Assembly: GCA_040183005.1 (NCBI GenBank)
Contig: JAMPIW010000007.1
Span: 1,246,188-1,310,187 of the forward strand
Reading direction: 5' to 3'
From: Gammaproteobacteria bacterium
Lineage (GTDB): Bacteria; Pseudomonadota; Gammaproteobacteria; Ga0077554; Ga007554
DNA: 64,000 bases
Shown: positions 4,009 to 31,883 of the stretch, one piece after another
Layout: the number at the start of each line of letters is the position of its first letter
Numbering within the stretch: the stretch's first letter is position 1
Notes under the pieces: generated by a model
What the model was told of the DNA's origin: nothing
Seen by the model: only the letters and a program-made list of their open reading frames with translations
The model's database searches: none
Made by a program: the position numbers and the translations under genes

Positions 4009-5386
4009 GGCTCTTCGCGTGATCGTGTGGGTAAATTTCATGTTTTTTAGAGCCTCGGGAGCATAGACGTGAGTATTTTTAGTCGCAGATATTCTTCATC
4101 GCGCAGACCATATGCACGGCGTTGGATGACGCGTATCTTATTGTTGAGCCCCTCAACAAAGCCGAGTGAAACTTTATTCTCTGGCTTGCAATAGGCTGCG
4201 ATCCCATCCCAATGGCGCTCAATCATCTCGGCAAATTTCTCGTAAGGTTTCAGGCGCTGCCACTTCAGGCTGGTTTTCCAATTCTCGAAGAAACGCCGCG
4301 CCCATGCTTCGCTCCTGTAATCCCACAACTGGCCAAACGACTCTTTCAGCAGGTACGCCGTGTTCAGCCGTTTGTTCGCTGCCAGCAAAGCCTTCAAAGA
4401 ACGTCTGCCGTCCAGTGTCATATTTTCGTGATTGGAAAGCAGTACGTATTTCTGCCCCTTAATGTAGCGCCTATCCTTGCCCTGAAGACGTGCATATTCC
4501 ATCTTTCTGACTTTATCCAGAGCATCGCCGAGATGGCTCATGATGTGGAATTTGTCGAACAGGATGGCCGCCTGCGGGGCGCGTTCGTTGGTTACGTTAC
4601 GAAAGGGCTTCCACATATCCATCACTGCAAGACAAATGCCTTTGGATTTCTTCTCTCCCAGCCAGTCATAGAACTGTCGCATGCTGTCCTCCGAACGGTC
4701 GGCACCGCCAAACCAGATGGGACGACCACGGATCAAGTCGCTGACTACAATGCGATAGGTATGTCCTTTGCGAATCGATATTTCGTCGATGCCAATGGCC
4801 TTGGGTGCTGGCGTTCCGGCGCGTTCCAGTTGCGCGGTCATGTATTGCTTGTCCAGTTCCTTGACGGTGTGCCAGTCCAGAAGCAATTCGCGGGCAATGT
4901 CCGACACCGTGCTGGCGCGACACCGTCTGCCTACATACCAAGAAAATCGCTTTGTATAGAGTGGGTTGTCGGCGAGAAAGTCGAGTCGTTCGCGTTTCAC
5001 TTTCCCGCAGTGCCGACAAAGCACCCGTCGAATTTCGATTTCCAGATAGATACGTGTGTCGCCACAGGAGAGGTCGCGAACTCGTCGAAGCCTCTTGTCG
5101 TACCAACCAGAGCGCGTTCTGCCGCAACTGTTGCAGGCCGTTTTTTTGAGCGCCGAACGAGCGTGATGATCCGTGCTTTGGAGTCGCCAAAGATGCCGCG
5201 TATCTTTTCCAGCGGGCGAAAACAGGGGAATCGGTATGCGTCGAGAATGCGTTTGGGTTTGCGTGAAATAGCCATTGAAAAAACCTCCCATTTTCTGCAA
5301 CAGGTGCAGGATGCATTTTGCCTGATGCCACAAGGCTTGCGGAGGTTTTCATGTTAAATTTCACCCACTCGATTTCACGAAGACCC
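4009..5386 (-). mobile_element. Complete ISL3-family insertion sequence (1378 bp) with imperfect ~30-bp terminal inverted repeats starting GGCTCTTCG / GGGTCTTCG
   Basis: The IR at 4009 (ggctcttcgcgtgatcgtgtgggtaaatttcatg) matches the reverse complement of 5353-5386 (gggtcttcgtgaaatcgagtgggtgaaatttaacatg) at about 24/30 positions. It encloses a single ISL3-type transposase gene. Confidence 0.85.
4047..5333 (-). CDS. ISL3-family transposase (zinc-finger N-terminal region plus DDE domain)
   Basis: 428 aa. CxxC...CxxC zinc-finger block (CNSCGRT...CRHCGKV) followed by an ISL3-type catalytic region. The true start may be an internal Met (for example MGGFFNG). Confidence 0.85.
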   Translation of the reverse strand: MWHQAKCILHLLQKMGGFFNGYFTQTQTHSRRIPIPLFSPAGKDTRHLWRLQSTDHHARSALKKTACNSCGRTRSGWYDKRLRRVRDLSCGDTRIYLEIEIRRVLCRHCGKVKRERLDFLADNPLYTKRFSWYVGRRCRASTVSDIARELLLDWHTVKELDKQYMTAQLERAGTPAPKAIGIDEISIRKGHTYRIVVSDLIRGRPIWFGGADRSEDSMRQFYDWLGEKKSKGICLAVMDMWKPFRNVTNERAPQAAILFDKFHIMSHLGDALDKVRKMEYARLQGKDRRYIKGQKYVLLSNHENMTLDGRRSLKALLAANKRLNTAYLLKESFGQLWDYRSEAWARRFFENWKTSLKWQRLKPYEKFAEMIERHWDGIAAYCKPENKVSLGFVEGLNNKIRVIQRRAYGLRDEEYLRLKILTSMLPRL

Positions 5387-7863: not shown

Positions 7864-8148
7864 ATGACGTACTACCCCGAACACACGCCCTCTTACTCCC
7901 TGACGCAATTGCGCGGCCTGATCGGCCTGCATGTTCACTATAACGGCGCGCGCTGCCAGATTATTGAAGTGCTGGAGGATGAGCCAGCGCTAATCCTTCA
8001 GGATTGCGAGAGGCACACCATGATCCAGCCGGATCAGCTCGGCGAGGCCCACCGCCGTGTGCCCTCTACCTTTACCATCCCTGTCCTGAACGGCGATAAA
8101 ACCGAGCTCAATCCGGTGTTTTTGGACCTGAATTTGCTGGGCGCTTAA
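7864..8148 (+). CDS. Hypothetical 94-aa protein on the opposite strand, in the gap between kdsB and ptp
   Basis: ORF with a weak SD. No recognisable motifs. Overlaps the kdsB 3' end by 4 nt. Confidence 0.3.
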
Positions 8149-8900
8149 TCTTCAAGCACCCGCCGCACCCGCAGCAAGTCCTCCCCCGTATCAACGCCAA
8201 TCCCCGGCGGCGCCAACGCCTCGGCGACATGAATCTTACGGCCCTGCCACAAGGCTCTTAGCTGCTCCAGGGATTCAGTCTGTTCCAGCACGCACGGCGG
8301 CCATTGGACATAGTCCTGGAGGAAGGCGGCGTGATAGGCATACAGGCCGATATGCCGGTAGTGTTCGGAGCGGGCAGGCAGTTCGCCGGTAGTTGCGGTG
8401 AAGGCATCGCGATCCCAGGGGATGGCGGCGCGGCTAAAATAGAGGGCGTAATTCTGTTGATCCATCACGACCTTGACAAGATGGGGATCGAACAGCTCGC
8501 CTGCGGTCTTGATGCGCTCGCACAATGTGGCGATGCTGGCCTGCGAGTGTGCTTGCAGGTTTTCGGCGACCTGACGGATCAGCGCGGGCGGCATGAGGGG
8601 TTCGTCGCCTTGCAGGTTGACGATGATTTGATCGCCGGCATAGCCCATCAGCCGCGCCACTTCAGCGAGGCGGTCAGTGCCGGAGGGGTGATGCGCTGCC
8701 GTCATGCACACATGCGCACCAAAGCCTAGCGCTACGCTGCGGATGCGCTCGTCATCGGTGGCCACCACCACTTCGGCAGCACCGCTTTCCAGCGCGCGCT
8801 CATAGACGTGCTGAATCATGGGCTTGCCGCCAATCTCAAGTAGCGGCTTGCCGGGTAACCGGGTGGACGCGTGACGTGCGGGAATGATGACGCGGAACAT
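8145..8900 (-). CDS. kdsB: 3-deoxy-manno-octulosonate cytidylyltransferase (CMP-KDO synthetase)
   Basis: 251 aa. N-terminal [16 protein letters not shown] motif, typical of KdsB. Confidence 0.9.
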
Positions 8901-24143: not shown

Positions 24144-25610
24144 TCAGTCAATCCGATAATTCGGCGCTTCGCGGGTGATCGTCACGTCATGCACATGGCT
24201 TTCACGCATACCGGCGCTGGTGACGCGCACGAATTTTGGCTTGGTGCGCATCTCCACGATATCTTTGCATCCGGTATAGCCCATGCTGGCGCGCACCCCG
24301 CCCATCAACTGATGCACGATGGCCACCATGCTGCCTTTATAGGGCACGCGGCCCTCAATGCCTTCCGGCACCAGTTTCTCGGCCTCAGCAGTCAGTTCCT
24401 GAAAATAGCGGTCGCTGGAGCCCTGCTGCATGGCGCCTATCGAACCCATGCCACGGTATGACTTGTAGGAACGGCCCTGGTAAAGCTCGACATCGCCGGG
24501 GGATTCCTCGGTGCCAGCGAACATGCTGCCGATCATCACCGAAGAGGCGCCCGCAGCGATGGCCTTGGCAAGATCGCCCGAATAACGGATACCGCCATCG
24601 GCGATGACCGGCACACCCATGCCCTGCAAGGCGTTGGCGACGTTGTTAATCGCCGTAATCTGCGGCACGCCCACACCGGTGACGATGCGTGTGGTGCAGA
24701 TTGATCCCGGACCGATACCGACCTTCACGGCATCGGCGCCTGCGTCCACCAGTGCCAGCGCTGCTTCGGCGGTAGCGATATTGCCGCCAATAAGCTGTAT
24801 CTCCGGAAAATTGCGCTTCACCCAGCGCACCCGGTCCAGCACGCCCTGTGAGTGGCCGTGCGCGGTATCAACGACAATGACATCGACACCGGCGGCCACC
24901 AGCGCGGCAACGCGCTCATCAGTGCCCTCACCCGTACCCACAGCCGCTCCGACACGCAAGCGCTCCAGATGGTCCTTGCATGCATTAGGCTTTTCCTTGG
25001 CCTTCTGAATGTCCTTCACGGTGATCATCCCGCGCAATTGAAACCTGTCGTTCACCACCAGGATTTTTTCGATGCGGTGCTTGTGCAATAGCGCCACCAC
25101 CTCATCACGCCCGGCGCCTTCGCGCACGGTGACCAGGCGCTCCTTGGGTGTCATGATGGTGGAGACAGGGTTGCCGTAACGACTCTCCGTCTCAAAGCGC
25201 AGATCCCGATTGGTTACGATACCGACCAGATCTTCCCCATCCACCACCGGCACACCCGAAATATTATGGGCGCGCGTCAAAGCCAGCACATCGCGAATAC
25301 TGGTATTCGGCGAAACAGAGATAGGATCTTTGATGACGCCGCTCTCAAACTTTTTGACGATGCGCACCTGCTCCGCCTGCTCTTCGGTGCTCATGTTCTT
25401 GTGGACAATCCCGATACCGCCTTCCTGCGCCAACGTAATCGCCAGCCGCGCCTCAGTCACGGTATCCATGGCGGCCGATAGCAAGGGAATATTCAACTTG
25501 ATTCCACGGGTAAGCTGGGTTTCCAGGCTTACCTGTTTGGGCAACACCGTGGAGTGATCCGGCACCAGCAGAACATCATCAAAGGTAAGGGCTTCCTGGA
25601 GGACGCGCAT
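24144..25610 (-). CDS. guaB: IMP dehydrogenase
   Basis: 488 aa, CBS pair plus catalytic IGPGSICTT loop. Confidence 0.95.
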
Positions 25611-26177
25611 GGGGAGGGTTCCGCCTTAATTGGGAAAAGAATTAACTGATAAGTATAAATTTTATCCTTGACCAGGTAAATAGCATAAAAAATATGGGAT
25701 TGCCGTGCGTCCTGCACCGAACTGCCGGGATATCTTAAATGCAATCATACACCTGCCTGATCCCAGCAACTCCAAGCATGCTTGCGCGTAGTGATATGAA
25801 GACATACGAAATACAATAAAATCAAATAGATAAATAATAGCAAGCTATGGGATGTCCCCATTCAGGGACGTTCGTGCAGATTCTTTGGGGATTTTGGCCT
25901 GATTAGCGCCTTCCGCGCGCTTATTACTGCGACATACGGGTGCCTTACCTTGCTCTTGCCGCCTTATAAATGTGCAATATCTTGCTTGCGCATACCGGCT
26001 AACCCATCAACATCATAATTTTTTGTTATATTTTTCATAATGTTAATTTTAGTAACCCCGGAAAGAAAAATATGGCACGATGTCTGCGTGATATTGCGTG
26101 CAGCAACCCAGTTGCTTTTTTACACCGTAACCCAGTGCTTTTTAATCACGGCGTAACAAAACACTGACAGACTAACT

Positions 26178-26212
26178 CATGCTATCCGGCACCTCTCTCC
26201 TGGATGGCATGA
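26178..26212 (+). promoter_or_regulatory. Leader hairpin immediately upstream of the RBS of DUF2892-like gene 1 (slightly degenerate copy)
   Basis: catgctatcc...ggatggcatg; homologous to the perfect hairpin at 27080-27113. Confidence 0.4.
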
Positions 26213-26242
26213 GTTAGTCCCCATTAAATGGAGGTATATGGA

Positions 26243-26524
26243 ATGAAGGATTTTGAAATGACAGCGAACATAGGTGGCGCCGACAAGGGCTTTAGAACGA
26301 TTGTCGGAATGACCTTGCTAGGCGTGGCGTTGGCACACCCAACATCCACATTGTACGCCACCGTGTTTCCAGTGATCGGGGCCTATTTCGTCCTGACGGC
26401 GATCATGGAATGGGATCCTATTGGCTATCTGGTTCAGTCAGCACAGAAGGTCATTAACCACCTGGGTGAGATGGTCAGCTCGCCGGCCATGGGGTTAATG
26501 TCACGACAAGCTCTCAGCGCCTGA
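26243..26524 (+). CDS. Small membrane protein, DUF2892 (YgaP-TM-like) family, paralogue 1 of 3
   Basis: MKDFEMTANIGGADKGFRTIVGMTLLG...AIMEWDPIGYL. SD GGAGG sits 7 nt upstream of the ATG at 26243. About 85% identical to the two downstream paralogues. Confidence 0.55.
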   Translation: MKDFEMTANIGGADKGFRTIVGMTLLGVALAHPTSTLYATVFPVIGAYFVLTAIMEWDPIGYLVQSAQKVINHLGEMVSSPAMGLMSRQALSA

Positions 26525-26775
26525 TGGCAGGTGCGTGGGCAAGGATGCACCGTGGGCCGCCATGGATGGCTGAGGCCACGACTAAACACATGTAGGGTGC
26601 GTTCCACGCACCACAACCATTTGTGCGCGGGACGCATTACTGCTCCACTGTCAATTTAATGTTTCAAATTTAGCAGCAACAGTTTGCAGGAGTGGCAGGT
26701 AACCTCGGGGACCCGTTACATACTGGCACCCCCTCCCGCCTTTTGGCACGGGGCCACGAGCAGCCGCTCCTACCC
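26520..26775. repeat. ~255-bp segmental repeat following paralogue 1. It matches 27764-27980, the region following paralogue 3 that runs into the xseA 5' flank.
   Basis: Near-identical blocks; for example, the 115-bp block 26661-26775 matches 27865-27980 with a few mismatches. Confidence 0.7.
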
Positions 26776-26972
26776 TTTTATTTCAATTTCCGCAAATAAC
26801 CCGCAAAACGCATATCCACCCTCACCGGTCATGACATGCACGTTGTCTTTTGTGAAAAACTGTTTCCTCGTGCCCGGCATCAGAAATCCACCACCTTCTT
26901 ATCGCTGAACTTGCCCACCACCCCTCCTTTTGTTGCCATCAAGTGAAAAATTTCCGGCAAGAGGCTTGACAT

Positions 26973-27008
26973 CCGACTTAATTGGGAATAAATTCCCAAT
27001 TAAGTCGG
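26973..27008. promoter_or_regulatory. Perfect 17-bp-arm palindrome CCGACTTAATTGGGAAT-aa-ATTCCCAATTAAGTCGG (candidate operator or hairpin), ~135 bp upstream of paralogue 2
   Basis: Read directly. Preceded by a TTGACA hexamer. Confidence 0.45.
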
Positions 27009-27079
27009 AAACGGCGAGCAGTCCACGGAACAGATACTGTTTTTTAATCGTGGTGCAACAAAACACTGACAGACTAACT

Positions 27080-27113
27080 CATGCCATCCGGCCCCTCTCT
27101 CCTGGATGGCATG
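27080..27113 (+). promoter_or_regulatory. Leader hairpin (10-bp perfect stem catgccatcc/ggatggcatg, 14-nt loop) just upstream of the RBS of paralogue 2
   Basis: Conserved with the copy at 26178-26212. The third paralogue carries a truncated version. Confidence 0.45.
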
Positions 27114-27144
27114 AGGAAGTCCCTACCAAATGGAGGTACATGTA

Positions 27145-27426
27145 ATGAAGTATTTTGAAATGACAGCGAACATAAGTGGCGCCGACAAGGGCTTTAGAGC
27201 GATAGCCGGAATGGCCTTGCTAGGCATGGCGTTGGCACATCCAACGTCGGCATTGTACGCCACAGTCTTCCCAATGATCGGGGCCTATTTTGTTCTGACG
27301 GCGATCATGGAATGGGATCCTATTGGCTATCTGGTTCAGTCAATACAAAACGTCCTTAATCACTTAGGTGAGATGGCAGGTTCATCGGCCAAGGGAATAA
27401 GGACACCACAAGCTTTCAGCGCCTGA
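27145..27426 (+). CDS. Small membrane protein, DUF2892-like, paralogue 2
   Basis: MKYFEMTANISGADKGFRAIAGMALLGMALA...; SD GGAGG upstream. Confidence 0.55.
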   Translation: MKYFEMTANISGADKGFRAIAGMALLGMALAHPTSALYATVFPMIGAYFVLTAIMEWDPIGYLVQSIQNVLNHLGEMAGSSAKGIRTPQAFSA

Positions 27427-27482
27427 TTACGCCTGAGCGGACAAGGATGCGAGGAAGTCCCTATCAAATGGAGGTACATGTA

Positions 27483-27764
27483 ATGAAGTATTTTGAAATG
27501 ACAGCGAACATAAGTGGCGCCGACAAGGGCTTTAGGACAATTGTCGGAATGGCCTTATTGGGCATGGCGTTGGCAGATCCAACGTCGACATTGTGCGCCA
27601 CCGTCTTCCCAATGATCGGGGCCTATTTCGTCCTGACGGCGATCATGGAGTGGGATCCTATTGGCTATCTGGTTCAATCGGCACAGAAGGTCCTTAATAA
27701 CTTAGGTGAGATGGCCGGTTCATCGGCCATGGGAATAAAGACACCACAAACTTTCGGCGCCTGA
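27483..27764 (+). CDS. Small membrane protein, DUF2892-like, paralogue 3
   Basis: Same family. Its leader is truncated relative to paralogues 1 and 2. Confidence 0.55.
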   Translation: MKYFEMTANISGADKGFRTIVGMALLGMALADPTSTLCATVFPMIGAYFVLTAIMEWDPIGYLVQSAQKVLNNLGEMAGSSAMGIKTPQTFGA

Positions 27765-28019
27765 TTGGCCTGAGTGAGCAAGGATGCATCGTGGGTCGCC
27801 ATGGACGGCTGAGGCCACGACTAATCATATGCAGGGTGTGTCCCACGCACCACTATTGATTTAGAGTTTCAAATTTAGCAGCTACAGTTTGTAGGAGTGG
27901 CAGGTAACCTCGGGGACCCGTTACATACTGGCACCCCCTCCCGCCTTTTTGCGCGGGGCCACGAGCAGCCGCTCCTACCCTTATCTCCCTTTCTGCGGAC
28001 AACCCGCAAAACGCCGACC

Positions 28020-29414
28020 ATGAATGGTATCATTCATGCCATGCAAGAACTCTTTGATGATCCTCGGAAAGATCTCCCTCAGCGCGAAGTCTACAGCGTG
28101 TCGCAACTCAATCACGCCGCGCGCTCAGTGCTGGAAGGAAGCTTCCCGTTAATCTGGGTGGAAGGGGAGATATCCAATCTGGCCAAGCCCTCCTCCGGCC
28201 ACCTCTACTTTACCCTCAAAGATGAGGCTGCGGCGGTGCGCTGCGCCATGTTCCGTCAGCGCAACCTGCGCCTGGGCTTTACGCCGGAAAACGGCATGCA
28301 GGTACTGGCGCGCGCGCAGGTCAGCCTGTATGAAGGCCGCGGCGAATTCCAGCTCATTGTTGAACACATAGAAGAGGCGGGGGATGGCGCGCTGCGTCGT
28401 GCGTTCGACATGCTCAAGCAGCGCCTGGCCGCCGAGGGTCTGTTCGATGCCGAGCGCAAGAAACCACTCCCCGCCCTGCCCCACTGCATCGGCGTCGTAA
28501 CCTCCCCCACCGGCGCGGCGGTCCGCGACATACTCACCGTGTTAAAACGGCGTTTTCCTGCCATTCCGGTGATTGTCTATCCTGTACCGGTGCAAGGAAC
28601 AGGTTCAGCGGCACAGATTGCACTAGCGATACGCACCGCGTCACGGCGCAAGGACTGTGATGTGTTGATTGTGGCGCGCGGCGGTGGCTCACTGGAAGAT
28701 TTATGGGCATTCAATGAAGAGATAGTGGCGCGCGCCATCCATGCCTGCGAGTTACCGGTCGTCACCGGTATCGGCCATGAAATCGACGTTACCATTGCCG
28801 ACTTCGTGGCCGATCAGCGCGCCGCCACACCCTCCGCCGCCGCCGAGCTGGCCAGCCCCGATCAAAGCGAATGGCTGCAGCAGTTCGTCCGTCAACAACA
28901 GCGTCTTGAAACGCGCATCCACGACAAGCTGGACCGCAAGCGCCAGACGCTGGACTGGATGGAGCGGCGCCTGCAACAGCAGCATCCCGGAAGCCGCTTA
29001 CGCCATCAGACTCAACGGCTCGACGAACTGGAACAACGCCTGAACCATGCACAGCGTGTTGTTTTTCGGCACAAACATGCATCTTTGGCCGAAATCTCCG
29101 CACGCCTGCATCGCCACACCCCACTGCACCGGCTGACGCAGCTCCAGATTCACCATGCAAACCTTGAGCAACGCCTGCACGGCGCCCTGCAACTCACGCT
29201 GGAAAGAAGCCATCAGCGATTAATCTCCAGGAGCCGCGCATTGGACACTGTCAGCCCGCTGGCCACACTAGGCCGCGGCTACGCCATCGTCAGCCGCCTG
29301 CCGCAACGCACCGTGTTGCGCGCCGCAGCCGACGCGGCGCCGGGCGATAAGGTAGAGGCACGCCTCGCGCGTGGGCGTTTGATTTGTAGTGTCGAAAAGG
29401 TGCTTGATGATTAA
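28020..29414 (+). CDS. xseA: Exodeoxyribonuclease VII large subunit
   Basis: OB-fold N-terminus VYSVSQLN...IWVEGEISNL...YFTLKD and a catalytic region. The ORF-track start at 27897 lies inside the duplicated repeat, so the ATG at 28020 is preferred. Confidence 0.85.
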   Translation: MNGIIHAMQELFDDPRKDLPQREVYSVSQLNHAARSVLEGSFPLIWVEGEISNLAKPSSGHLYFTLKDEAAAVRCAMFRQRNLRLGFTPENGMQVLARAQVSLYEGRGEFQLIVEHIEEAGDGALRRAFDMLKQRLAAEGLFDAERKKPLPALPHCIGVVTSPTGAAVRDILTVLKRRFPAIPVIVYPVPVQGTGSAAQIALAIRTASRRKDCDVLIVARGGGSLEDLWAFNEEIVARAIHACELPVVTGIGHEIDVTIADFVADQRAATPSAAAELASPDQSEWLQQFVRQQQRLETRIHDKLDRKRQTLDWMERRLQQQHPGSRLRHQTQRLDELEQRLNHAQRVVFRHKHASLAEISARLHRHTPLHRLTQLQIHHANLEQRLHGALQLTLERSHQRLISRSRALDTVSPLATLGRGYAIVSRLPQRTVLRAAADAAPGDKVEARLARGRLICSVEKVLDD

Positions 29415-31643: not shown

Positions 31644-31817
31644 CTTCCCTCATTGGCTATGTTGATGTCCGAGACAATGCAACTTGTGCGCCAAAGAGGT
31701 ATTGGGGAGACAAAAGGCAAGACCAGCGGCGAGATGTGGGGAGGGAGCGGCCCTCAGAGGCTATAAAAATATTCCACTGCGGTAGATATAGTGGTTTTTC
31801 ACAACCTCTTGGTTATG

Positions 31818-31866
31818 TAGGGTGCGTCCCACGCACCACAATCATTGGTGCGTGGGACGCACCCTA
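31818..31866. repeat. REP-like perfect palindrome TAGGGTGCGTCCCACGCACCA-caatcat-TGGTGCGTGGGACGCACCCTA between lspA and the fliK-like gene. Degenerate copies at 26590-26640 and 27818-27850.
   Basis: 21-bp arms read directly. Each arm contains a nested palindrome, GTGCGTCCCACGCAC. Confidence 0.55.
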
Positions 31867-31883
31867 CGGATTTAAAAATGGGA

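Follow-up and report, generated by a model that had tools for sequence, protein, structure and literature searches.

A triplicated gene for a W-D-P-type DUF2892 membrane protein between guaB and xseA in a gammaproteobacterial genome

The window analysed here is a stretch of 64 kb from contig JAMPIW010000007.1 of a metagenome-assembled genome of a Gammaproteobacteria bacterium (GCA_040183005.1), and all position numbers are coordinates of this window. Between guaB, which encodes IMP dehydrogenase on the minus strand (24144-25610, an open reading frame (ORF) of 488 aa), and xseA, which encodes the large subunit of exonuclease VII on the plus strand (28020-29414), lie three paralogous genes for a small membrane protein. 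We refer to loci or contigs of sampled relatives by L-labels; orthologues of guaB in L001, L003, L008, L009 and L024 match PF00478 (IMPDH), and orthologues of xseA match PF02601. The paralogues are plus-strand ORFs of 93 aa at 26243-26524, 27145-27426 and 27483-27764. All three have GGAGG as Shine-Dalgarno sequence (SD) 8 nt upstream of the start (26230-26234, 27132-27136 and 27470-27474). Copy 1 is preceded by a leader (26136-26242) and followed by a tail, the 3' untranslated region (UTR), at 26525-26811. A junction segment (26812-27037) then leads to the leader of copy 2 (27038-27144). Copies 2 and 3 are separated by an intercistronic region (27427-27482), and the tail of copy 3 (27765-28019) runs up to xseA, all on the plus strand.

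The copies share 78% (copies 1/2), 80% (1/3) and 87% (2/3) of their amino acids and 86.5%, 86.5% and 90.4% of their nucleotides, respectively. An earlier sequence-only reading of the window had described a tandem triplication with a duplicated downstream segment. Both are real: in addition to the three plus-strand paralogues between guaB and xseA (78-87% amino-acid identity), ~290 bp behind copy 1 recur behind copy 3 as three blocks that are 79-93% identical. These are 26532-26614 with 27771-27853 (88%), 26642-26777 with 27847-27982 (93%) and 26778-26811 with 27981-28014 (79%). The repeat thus reaches to 6 nt before the xseA ATG at 28020.

In a hidden Markov model (HMM) search all three proteins lie above the gathering cut-off of PF11127 (YgaP-like transmembrane (TM) domain, formerly DUF2892), with 39.0, 36.9 and 36.1 bits against 25.3 and E = 9e-10 to 7e-9, which bears out the family membership proposed earlier. 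The same family is matched by 16 of 16 relatives (best E = 1.4e-22), and NCBI already names these proteins 'DUF2892 domain-containing protein'. In the alignment of the branch W57 and D58 are invariant and P59 is nearly so. The column of D58 holds a Cys in the canonical proteins P0039 and P0040 (…SFCPLY, …STCPLY) and in E. coli YgaP (…GFCGM), in line with the Asp for Cys exchange that had been noted from the letters. The canonical Cys of the C-P-x-Y motif after helix 2 is absent and is an Asp in all members of the branch. Owing to this replacement the proteins are filed, as judged from the alignment, as a variant branch (W-D-P) of PF11127. The branch is rare, with 13 clusters (50% identity) at E <= 1e-3 in a full scan of 1.84 billion representative proteins.

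The AlphaFold2 (AF2) model, based on 15 sequences, places helices at residues 12-31, 36-55 and 59-80 with a 4-residue loop between helices 1 and 2. The predicted local distance difference test (pLDDT) score is 81-92 over these two helices (residues 11-60), and the W-D-P falls into the break that follows helix 2. The prediction is a hairpin of two transmembrane helices. With the stand-alone DUF2892 proteins and the TM domain of YgaP the branch has in common the N-terminal motif N-[IV]-G/S-x-x-D-[KR]-x-x-R, a pair of hydrophobic helices joined by a short loop, and a conserved Pro-containing motif directly after helix 2. It differs from them by the invariant Asp of W-D-P where canonical DUF2892 proteins have a Cys (F/T-C-P-L-Y; G-F-C-G-M in YgaP), by a 5-residue N-terminal extension (MKYFE) and by a third, variable C-terminal helix. 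Unlike YgaP, it comes without a rhodanese domain. The core FPMIGAYFVLTAIMEWDPIGYLVQS is unchanged in close relatives and lightly altered in L007, at 52% overall identity. Two-domain relatives with a tandem W-D-P exist as well; L027 has two of them (4377-4925 and 8092-8661), 3 kb apart, which adjoin the gene of a LysR regulator and a DUF4395 gene and have ordinary short terminators.

Among Cys-type members, Dsui_0042 of Azospira is induced by H2S (PMC5358917), and another one belongs to the trxC operon of Bradyrhizobium (PMC6710368). Such hints at sulfide or redox functions may not be transferable to the Cys-less branch, and the loss of the Cys argues against the branch sharing any thiol chemistry that canonical members may use. 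For the role of the protein itself there are weak hints of metal or redox stress. A kinship to StyA/indole monooxygenase (phmmer against PDB 7z97, E 1.5e-3; Pfam Smoa_sbd, E 0.04) was judged to be chance; the family profile found nothing in the PDB at E <= 10, and the weak Smoa_sbd match occurs in 2/16 members. A Foldseek comparison of the AF2 model with the PDB gave no match with E <= 0.001, which is uninformative for so small a helical hairpin.

The number of copies varies among the relatives. L003 (with L004-L006), L008, L009 (with L010 and L011) and L012 have one copy in the slot between guaB and xseA, whereas L001 (with L002, L019 and L021), from an activated-carbon metagenome, has the three-copy array including the junction segment, as in the window. 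The plasticity formerly ascribed to the locus is therefore genuine. In the more distant L024 (GuaB 90%, small protein 38% identical) the gene is again found between guaB and xseA, and on the short contig L023 it lies directly upstream of xseA. Outside the slot, close homologues with the same leader are found in L013, next to copB, DUF2231 and an ISL3-like ORF, and in L016, next to a methyltransferase gene and a group II intron. As to the distant homologues, L007 and L020 adjoin xerC, and L025 adjoins DUF305 and a recombinase gene. In L031 the neighbour is a two-component system. ArsR or rhodanese neighbours, which had been suggested for this family, do not recur among the homologue contexts examined, nor do thioredoxin neighbours. 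Copper-related genes occur at two loci (copB; DUF305, which we take to be linked to copper), and this is only a lead.

In L016 the homologue is followed at a distance of 1.2 kb by the group II intron domain (1908-1981; Rfam RF00029, 52 bits). The ORF directly after the homologue of L013 (3366-3788) has, by eye, an N-terminus like that of an ISL3-type transposase (no Pfam match), and the contig ends about 270 bp past it. On account of these two elements the L013 and L016 copies are regarded as located in mobile-element-rich DNA. In L001 a tyrosine integrase gene (1-1101; Arm-DNA-bind_3, Phage_integrase) adjoins guaA. Searches for plasmid association gave no match by DNA or protein, and for phage there was no significant PHROG match.

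The sequence-only reading took the duplication to be recent. The window paralogues differ by 0.26-0.37 synonymous substitutions per site (dS), at a dN/dS ratio (omega) of 0.24-0.33, and guaB shows dS of 0.24-0.39 and dN of 0.004-0.011 between these genomes. Since the divergence of the paralogues equals that of guaB, either the duplication is an old one or lineages that had already diverged contributed the copies. All copies are under purifying selection. Identities along the genes are mosaic; for instance, copies 1 and 3 of L001 agree at 97.5% over their 5' halves. Between copy 3 of the window (27483-27764) and copy 2 of L001 (6001-6282) dS is 0.08 and dN 0.09 with omega about 1, compared to omega of 0.2-0.5 in all other pairs. 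This suggests that the two exchanged sequence recently and that positions beyond the invariant core have since changed under relaxed constraint or in a diversifying manner. The mosaicism reads as a signature of gene conversion or exchange.

Homology between the leaders of copies 1 and 2 begins at ~26136 and ~27038. Both leaders contain a hairpin with 18-nt arms (26170-26187/26202-26219 and 27072-27089/27104-27121), a 14-nt loop and an arm complementarity of 94% and 89%, respectively, which ends 10 nt before GGAGG. The leaders fold with -38.7 and -37.8 kcal/mol (z = -4.1 and -3.4 compared to shuffles). A conserved leader structure had been recognised correctly, but with its arms of 18 nt the hairpin is larger than the stem of 10 bp given then. 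In the leader of copy 3 (27427-27482) the hairpin is missing, and the fold is no more stable than that of shuffled sequences (z +1.05). A scan of the genome contigs with the leader pattern matched two loci, both already known.

The junction of copies 2 and 3 reads caaggatgc|gaggaag at 27450/27451. The intercistronic region is a fusion of the initial ~24 nt of a tail, up to and including GGATGC (27445-27450), with the 3'-terminal 32 nt of a leader, which start with GAGGAAG at 27451. The units of L001 repeat every 377 bp, and there the initial ~20 nt of the tail (…CAAGGATGC) precede a leader whose hairpin is complete. Those of the window repeat every 338 bp and lack the hairpin at this point (…CAAGGATGC|GAGGAAG…). 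As the hairpin of this junction is intact in L001, the short leader of window copy 3 is taken as a secondary loss, apparently by a deletion of about 40-48 nt beside GGATG-like repeats that flank the long inverted repeat. The scar postulated by the sequence-only reading would thus be a deletion scar and not the original duplication junction. Because there is no tail or terminator between copies 2 and 3, the two are probably co-transcribed from the upstream promoter P2, and we slightly favour that they form an operon.

P2 is located in the junction segment, which has no counterpart after copy 3 and was found solely in three-copy arrays. It is a promoter-like site on the plus strand (26966-26994, TTGACA-17-TAAATT, 10/12). 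A perfect, strand-neutral palindrome of 18+2+18 nt (26972-27009, core TTGGGAAT-AA-ATTCCCAA) overlaps its -10 and the expected start site and represents a candidate operator. The palindrome core is unique in the window. L001 has the same promoter site and keeps the core. In L022 the palindrome recurs in slightly different form, and TTGACA-17-TATTAT (11/12) lies within TTTGGGAATATTATCCCAAA upstream of a 53%-identical gene. None of the sampled single-copy genomes has the junction promoter with the palindrome. Based on the homologous site at L022, P2 and the palindrome appear to be a family-native regulated promoter with a probable repressor operator, a view that we hold with somewhat better than even odds. 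Local and global alignments of the junction segment with the xseA 5' region and the region upstream of copy 1 revealed no homology; all scores were within the shuffle distributions, so that an origin as decayed xseA 5' coding sequence or as a copy of the copy 1 upstream region is not demonstrable.

The tail of copy 1 comprises a small hairpin (26551-26580), a degenerate insert of a repetitive extragenic palindromic (REP) doublet, or REPIN (26592-26640), and a long rod hairpin (26686-26773). After 26773 follow CCUUUUAUUU and a copy of the xseA-proximal sequence AACCCGCAAAACGC. The tail of copy 3 comprises a single REP-like hairpin (~27831-27851), the rod hairpin (27891-27978), the weak U-rich CCUUAUCUCCCUUUCU and the xseA-proximal sequence. 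The difference between the REPIN in the former and the single REP in the latter explains a 34-nt indel between the tails. The rod hairpin is ~88 nt long, with a closing stem P1 of the form G[U/C]AGGAGCGGC / GCCGCUCCU[A/G]C and pyrimidine-rich unpaired loops. In copy 1 there is one C.A mismatch in P1.

The rod hairpin is found behind 13 distinct homologues at a length of 86-93 nt with conserved closing stem. Among them are L007 and L020, which are 49-52% identical and have no xseA downstream, and L023 and L024 (38-43%). In all four U6 directly follows the stem; L022 has a short 34-nt version. In ten close sequences 93.5% of the cells pair, 5 pairs show two-sided changes and 0/500 shuffles reach the covariation score. 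Compensatory exchanges in P1 are U-A to C-G and C-G/U.G/U-A. Several of its G.U pairs would be C.A on the opposite strand, which fits a plus-strand RNA. The inner stems vary by lineage, and the unpaired pyrimidine-rich loops are present in all. Tails of the relatives fold with -38 to -47 kcal/mol (z -4.5 to -6.7).

The rod hairpin resembles intrinsic terminators in being a stable coding-strand stem right after the gene with a U-run behind it, most clearly in L007, L020, L023 and L024 with their U6. It differs from them in length (~88 nt and not ~20-30 nt), in a closing-stem sequence conserved over very diverged homologues, in its large pyrimidine-rich unpaired loops and in the degenerate U-tract after window copy 3. 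We lean towards the tail hairpin being the intrinsic terminator of the gene, which would partly insulate xseA. As read from its structure and distribution, the repeated flank of xseA belongs for the most part to the 3' UTR of the small gene itself. What is peculiar to the xseA side is confined to the final ~40 nt of the repeat (…AACCCGCAAAACGC…). The probable -10 of xseA (28025-28033) falls outside the repeat. Two further readings of the tail were rejected. A sigma-54 site (TGGCACCCCCUCCCGC) would have a GG-to-GC spacing of 11 where 10 is required, and L007 does not preserve it. The coding potential suggested by the xseA frame, which is open back to 27897, is contradicted by single-nucleotide indels between relatives, which mark the region as non-coding.

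Taken together, the best explanation of the locus is an amplified, lineage-specific gene slot between guaB and xseA, to which we assign a probability of roughly 0.6. We are considerably more confident of the anatomy, the family membership, the copy-number variation and the age of and selection on the copies; these points, like the conservation and covariation of the tail hairpin, are observations. The self-contained module of the slot would comprise a promoter, a stem-loop of 18 bp in the 5' UTR just ahead of a free SD, the 93-codon gene for a two-helix inner-membrane protein of the WDP branch, and a 3' UTR ending in the rod hairpin and its U-rich tract. In a first step a repeat with a period of ~0.9 kb, from the leader through the first xseA bases, would have arisen, with the junction segment bringing in a second near-consensus sigma-70 promoter. 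An internal tandem duplication of ~0.38 kb (leader, ORF and ~20 nt) may then have placed copies 2 and 3 into one transcription unit, and the leader hairpin of copy 3 may have been removed by the later deletion in the window lineage. On this account the copies date back as far as the divergence of the genomes; purifying selection maintains all of them, and gene conversion has evened them out in patches. The outcome would be a higher and differently regulated dosage, with copy 1 expressed from the ancestral upstream region and copies 2 and 3 from the operator-controlled promoter.

Several points weigh against this explanation. Promoters, operator, terminator and operon structure are all deduced from sequence. 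For copy 1 no -35/-10 pair of constant spacing was found among the relatives, and the junction segment resembles none of the regions with which it was compared. The window tails fold with -37.4 and -40.8 kcal/mol, at z values of only -1.6 and -2.1 that are unexceptional compared to shuffles, and termination may be weak after copy 3 in view of its poor U-tract (CCUUAUCUCCCUUUCU as compared to CCUUUUAUUU after copy 1). Conservation of P1 far beyond the needs of a terminator suggests a further or different role; the GTAG/CTAC ends and the constant length exceed these needs as well. Outside the xseA slot no recurring neighbour is found; the neighbourhoods are heterogeneous and give no functional constraint. 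Finally, the guaB trees are star-like, and the two window tails resemble two allelic types of single-copy genomes, A in L003, L008 and L012 and B in L009, which makes the order and place of the duplications given above tentative.

If the amplification of a lineage-specific slot is correct, an apparently fresh, promoter-hijacking duplication turns into an old, selectively maintained array, and the supposedly captured flank into the gene's terminator region. New are the definition of the W-D-P branch, the polymorphism of one versus three copies, the conserved long tail hairpin and the shared promoter with its operator. A rare Cys-to-Asp branch is thereby defined within the widespread, uncharacterised DUF2892 family. 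Moreover, two non-coding elements become testable: a long hairpin supported by covariation, and a near-consensus promoter with palindrome that is common to distant homologues. The locus is an ordinary gene-family amplification without bearing on a long-standing open question.

Among the competing explanations, the one that survives best assumes, in place of an ancient duplication on the spot, a homology-facilitated capture: recombination would have brought together module alleles which had diverged in separate strains or lineages. The divergence between copies would then reflect that of the donors, and the array itself may be young. This would fit the tails, of which tail 1 is like those of L003, L008 and L012 (…TTTTATTTCAA…GCAxATAACCCGCAAAACGCA) and tail 3 like that of L009 (…TTCTGCGGACAACCCGCAAAACGCC). 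It would also fit the junction promoter and operator, matched in the distant L022 and in no single-copy genome, the dS of only 0.08 between window copy 3 and L001 copy 2, and the ISL3-like ORF and group II intron beside close homologues elsewhere. On the other hand, no donor was found among the sampled genomes and the plasmid searches gave no match, conversion between the genes of an old array would account for the mosaicism just as well, and the array is common to two genomes with diverged flanks. Overall, we consider such a capture rather unlikely.

A second alternative, which is again unlikely and a little more so, concerns the tail hairpin: it might not primarily be a terminator but a selfish element of the REP/REPIN type or a functional RNA, i.e. 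a small RNA derived from the 3' UTR or a docking site for a protein or Rho via the C-rich loops. REP/REPIN elements are mobilised by REP-associated tyrosine transposases (RAYT). A family of REPs and REPINs with a GTAG head (GTAGGGTGCGTCCCACGCACC) is dispersed in this genome, including a clean REPIN (GTAGGGTGCGTCCCACGCACC…GGTGCGTGGGACGCACCCTAC) at 31817-31867 and a related hairpin (GTAGGATGCGG…CCGCATCCTAC) between convergent ORFs at 2534-2568. The tail hairpin shares with this family the GTAG head, the CTAC end and the hairpin-forming extragenic sequence, and its head presumably resembles that of Pseudomonas putida REPs (GTAGGAGCGGG). Also in favour, P1 is almost invariant and the length constant among homologues of 38-52% identity, and the pyrimidine-rich loops are kept as unpaired feature while their sequence changes.

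Unlike REP/REPIN elements, however, the tail hairpin is not dispersed. P1 occurs in the 64 kb only at 26686-26773 and 27891-27978, and each related locus has a single copy, in every case behind the gene. The placement and orientation of the hairpin with respect to the gene do not change across lineages: as one would expect of a terminator, it sits at the 3' end on the coding strand, with U-runs after it. The tail forms one long hairpin whose halves have no palindromes of their own, and no own promoter was found. The two-domain WDP genes manage with short terminators of the usual kind. Nor do the tails look like integron recombination sites: by inspection there are no attC core sites (RYYYAAC … GTTRRRY), the tail ending in GTAGGAG…CTCCTAC, and the modules carry promoter-like sites of their own, unlike promoterless integron cassettes. 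A related and quite improbable idea is that tail and leader hairpins, with their similar CU-rich loop, constitute a regulatory RNA element of a kind not described before, which would evolve together with DUF2892 genes of the WDP type. It could be a 3'-UTR small RNA or a protein/Rho docking site, and in the slot between guaB and xseA it would gate read-through into a leaderless xseA.

Third, the sequence-only reading had assumed that a recent segmental duplication captured the 5' flank and possibly the promoter of xseA, and that the leader may act as an attenuator or riboswitch-like sensor. The repeat indeed comes within 6 nt of the equivalent of the xseA ATG and probably includes ATGA. The leader hairpin is very stable and nearly identical in L013 and L016, where it is better conserved than the coding region (74-80% identical). 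Against recency stand the dS values given above and an array common to a genome about 8% diverged. A captured promoter is contradicted by the position of the likely xseA -10 and by the composition of the flank, mostly the putative terminator hairpin of the gene itself, which is also present without xseA in L007, L020 and L022.

The sensor function fares no better. The leader forms a single stem-loop, and Rfam gave no relevant match at E <= 1 for the window region or the related loci. Although 96% of the cells are paired, the covariation score is not above that of shuffles (101/500); about half of the substitutions are wobble-compatible and half disruptive, with the sole G-C to A-U exchange at the basal pair. 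An expression platform was not found in the leader, as no U-tract follows the stem, there is no terminator and the SD lies outside the stem. The loop (CCUCUCUCC) was considered as anti-SD and rejected: the duplex of -5 to -8 kcal/mol is equalled by shuffled loops. The hairpin is moreover deleted in copy 3, the ~85 nt of leader containing it are absent from L022, and L023 and L024 have another, shorter hairpin. We thus regard recent capture combined with a riboswitch-like leader as very unlikely, and a sensor role is not supported. Most economically, the leader would be an mRNA-stabilising or protein-binding 5' stem-loop that is dispensable at an internal operon position.

A fourth possibility, highly improbable, is that the products are small membrane toxins of the type I or holin kind. 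Such toxins are commonly encoded in tandem repeats with structured leaders, and the long direct repeats ldrA-C of E. coli are tandem arrays of small membrane-protein genes. In favour of this, the products are small and hydrophobic, the genes are repeated in tandem, the 5' UTR is long and structured, and PHROG returned a single weak match to a holin (E 0.09). With ldrA-C it shares tandem units of structured leader and small hydrophobic ORF and a copy number that varies between strains. In contrast to ldrA-C, however, the product is a conserved DUF2892 protein and not a toxin of <60 aa. Type I toxins have less than ~60 aa, one TM helix, an overlapping antisense RNA and a sequestered SD, whereas the present proteins have 93 aa with two helices plus a third, are clear PF11127 members, and their SD is free. 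No antisense promoter-like site was found in the leaders, neither PHROG nor PADLOC gave a significant match, and single-copy orthologues under purifying selection occupy a conserved chromosomal slot. That one gene was wrongly expanded during assembly, conceivable for a metagenome-assembled genome, has a negligible chance, as the copies are 10-14% apart with unlike flanks and the same layout is found in independent assemblies from other samples or another study (L001, L002, L019 and L021).

Several minor observations concern the surroundings of the modules. Just 5' of the copy 1 leader lies a small hairpin followed by T6 (26100-26122, GCAACCCAGTTGC TTTTTT); as a terminator it is probably not real, its stem being kept in neither L003 nor L008. 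As a promoter of copy 1, TTTACA … TTTAAT/TGTAAT was rejected, its spacing varying from 12 to 19 nt among relatives as read from the alignment. L013 (2861-2900) and L016 (~350-385) have a conserved mini-ORF before the leader (ATGAAGTGTAATGTCTAA, MKCNV) with a strong AAGGAGG SD, which is absent in the window.

xseA has no SD. Its candidate promoter element, TGGTATCAT (28025-28033), is extended -10-like and lies 7 nt before an alternative start ATG at 28041. In relatives TATGAT/TATCAT occurs at equal distance from the xseA ATG, and gene callers disagree there on the start. This suggests a leaderless xseA mRNA with its -10 at 28025-28033. The sequence at 28032-28044 (ATTCATGCCATGC) resembles an arm of the leader hairpin (ACTCATGCCATCC), with a weaker match in L003, which is probably chance. 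At the start of guaB (minus-strand ATG at 25610), TTCCGCCTTAATTGGGAA (25619-25636) is a 17/18 match to one arm of the junction palindrome, where L001 and L003 read ...CCGCCTTGTAAATAAGGGAA instead; it may reflect chance, local gene conversion or a site of a shared regulator.

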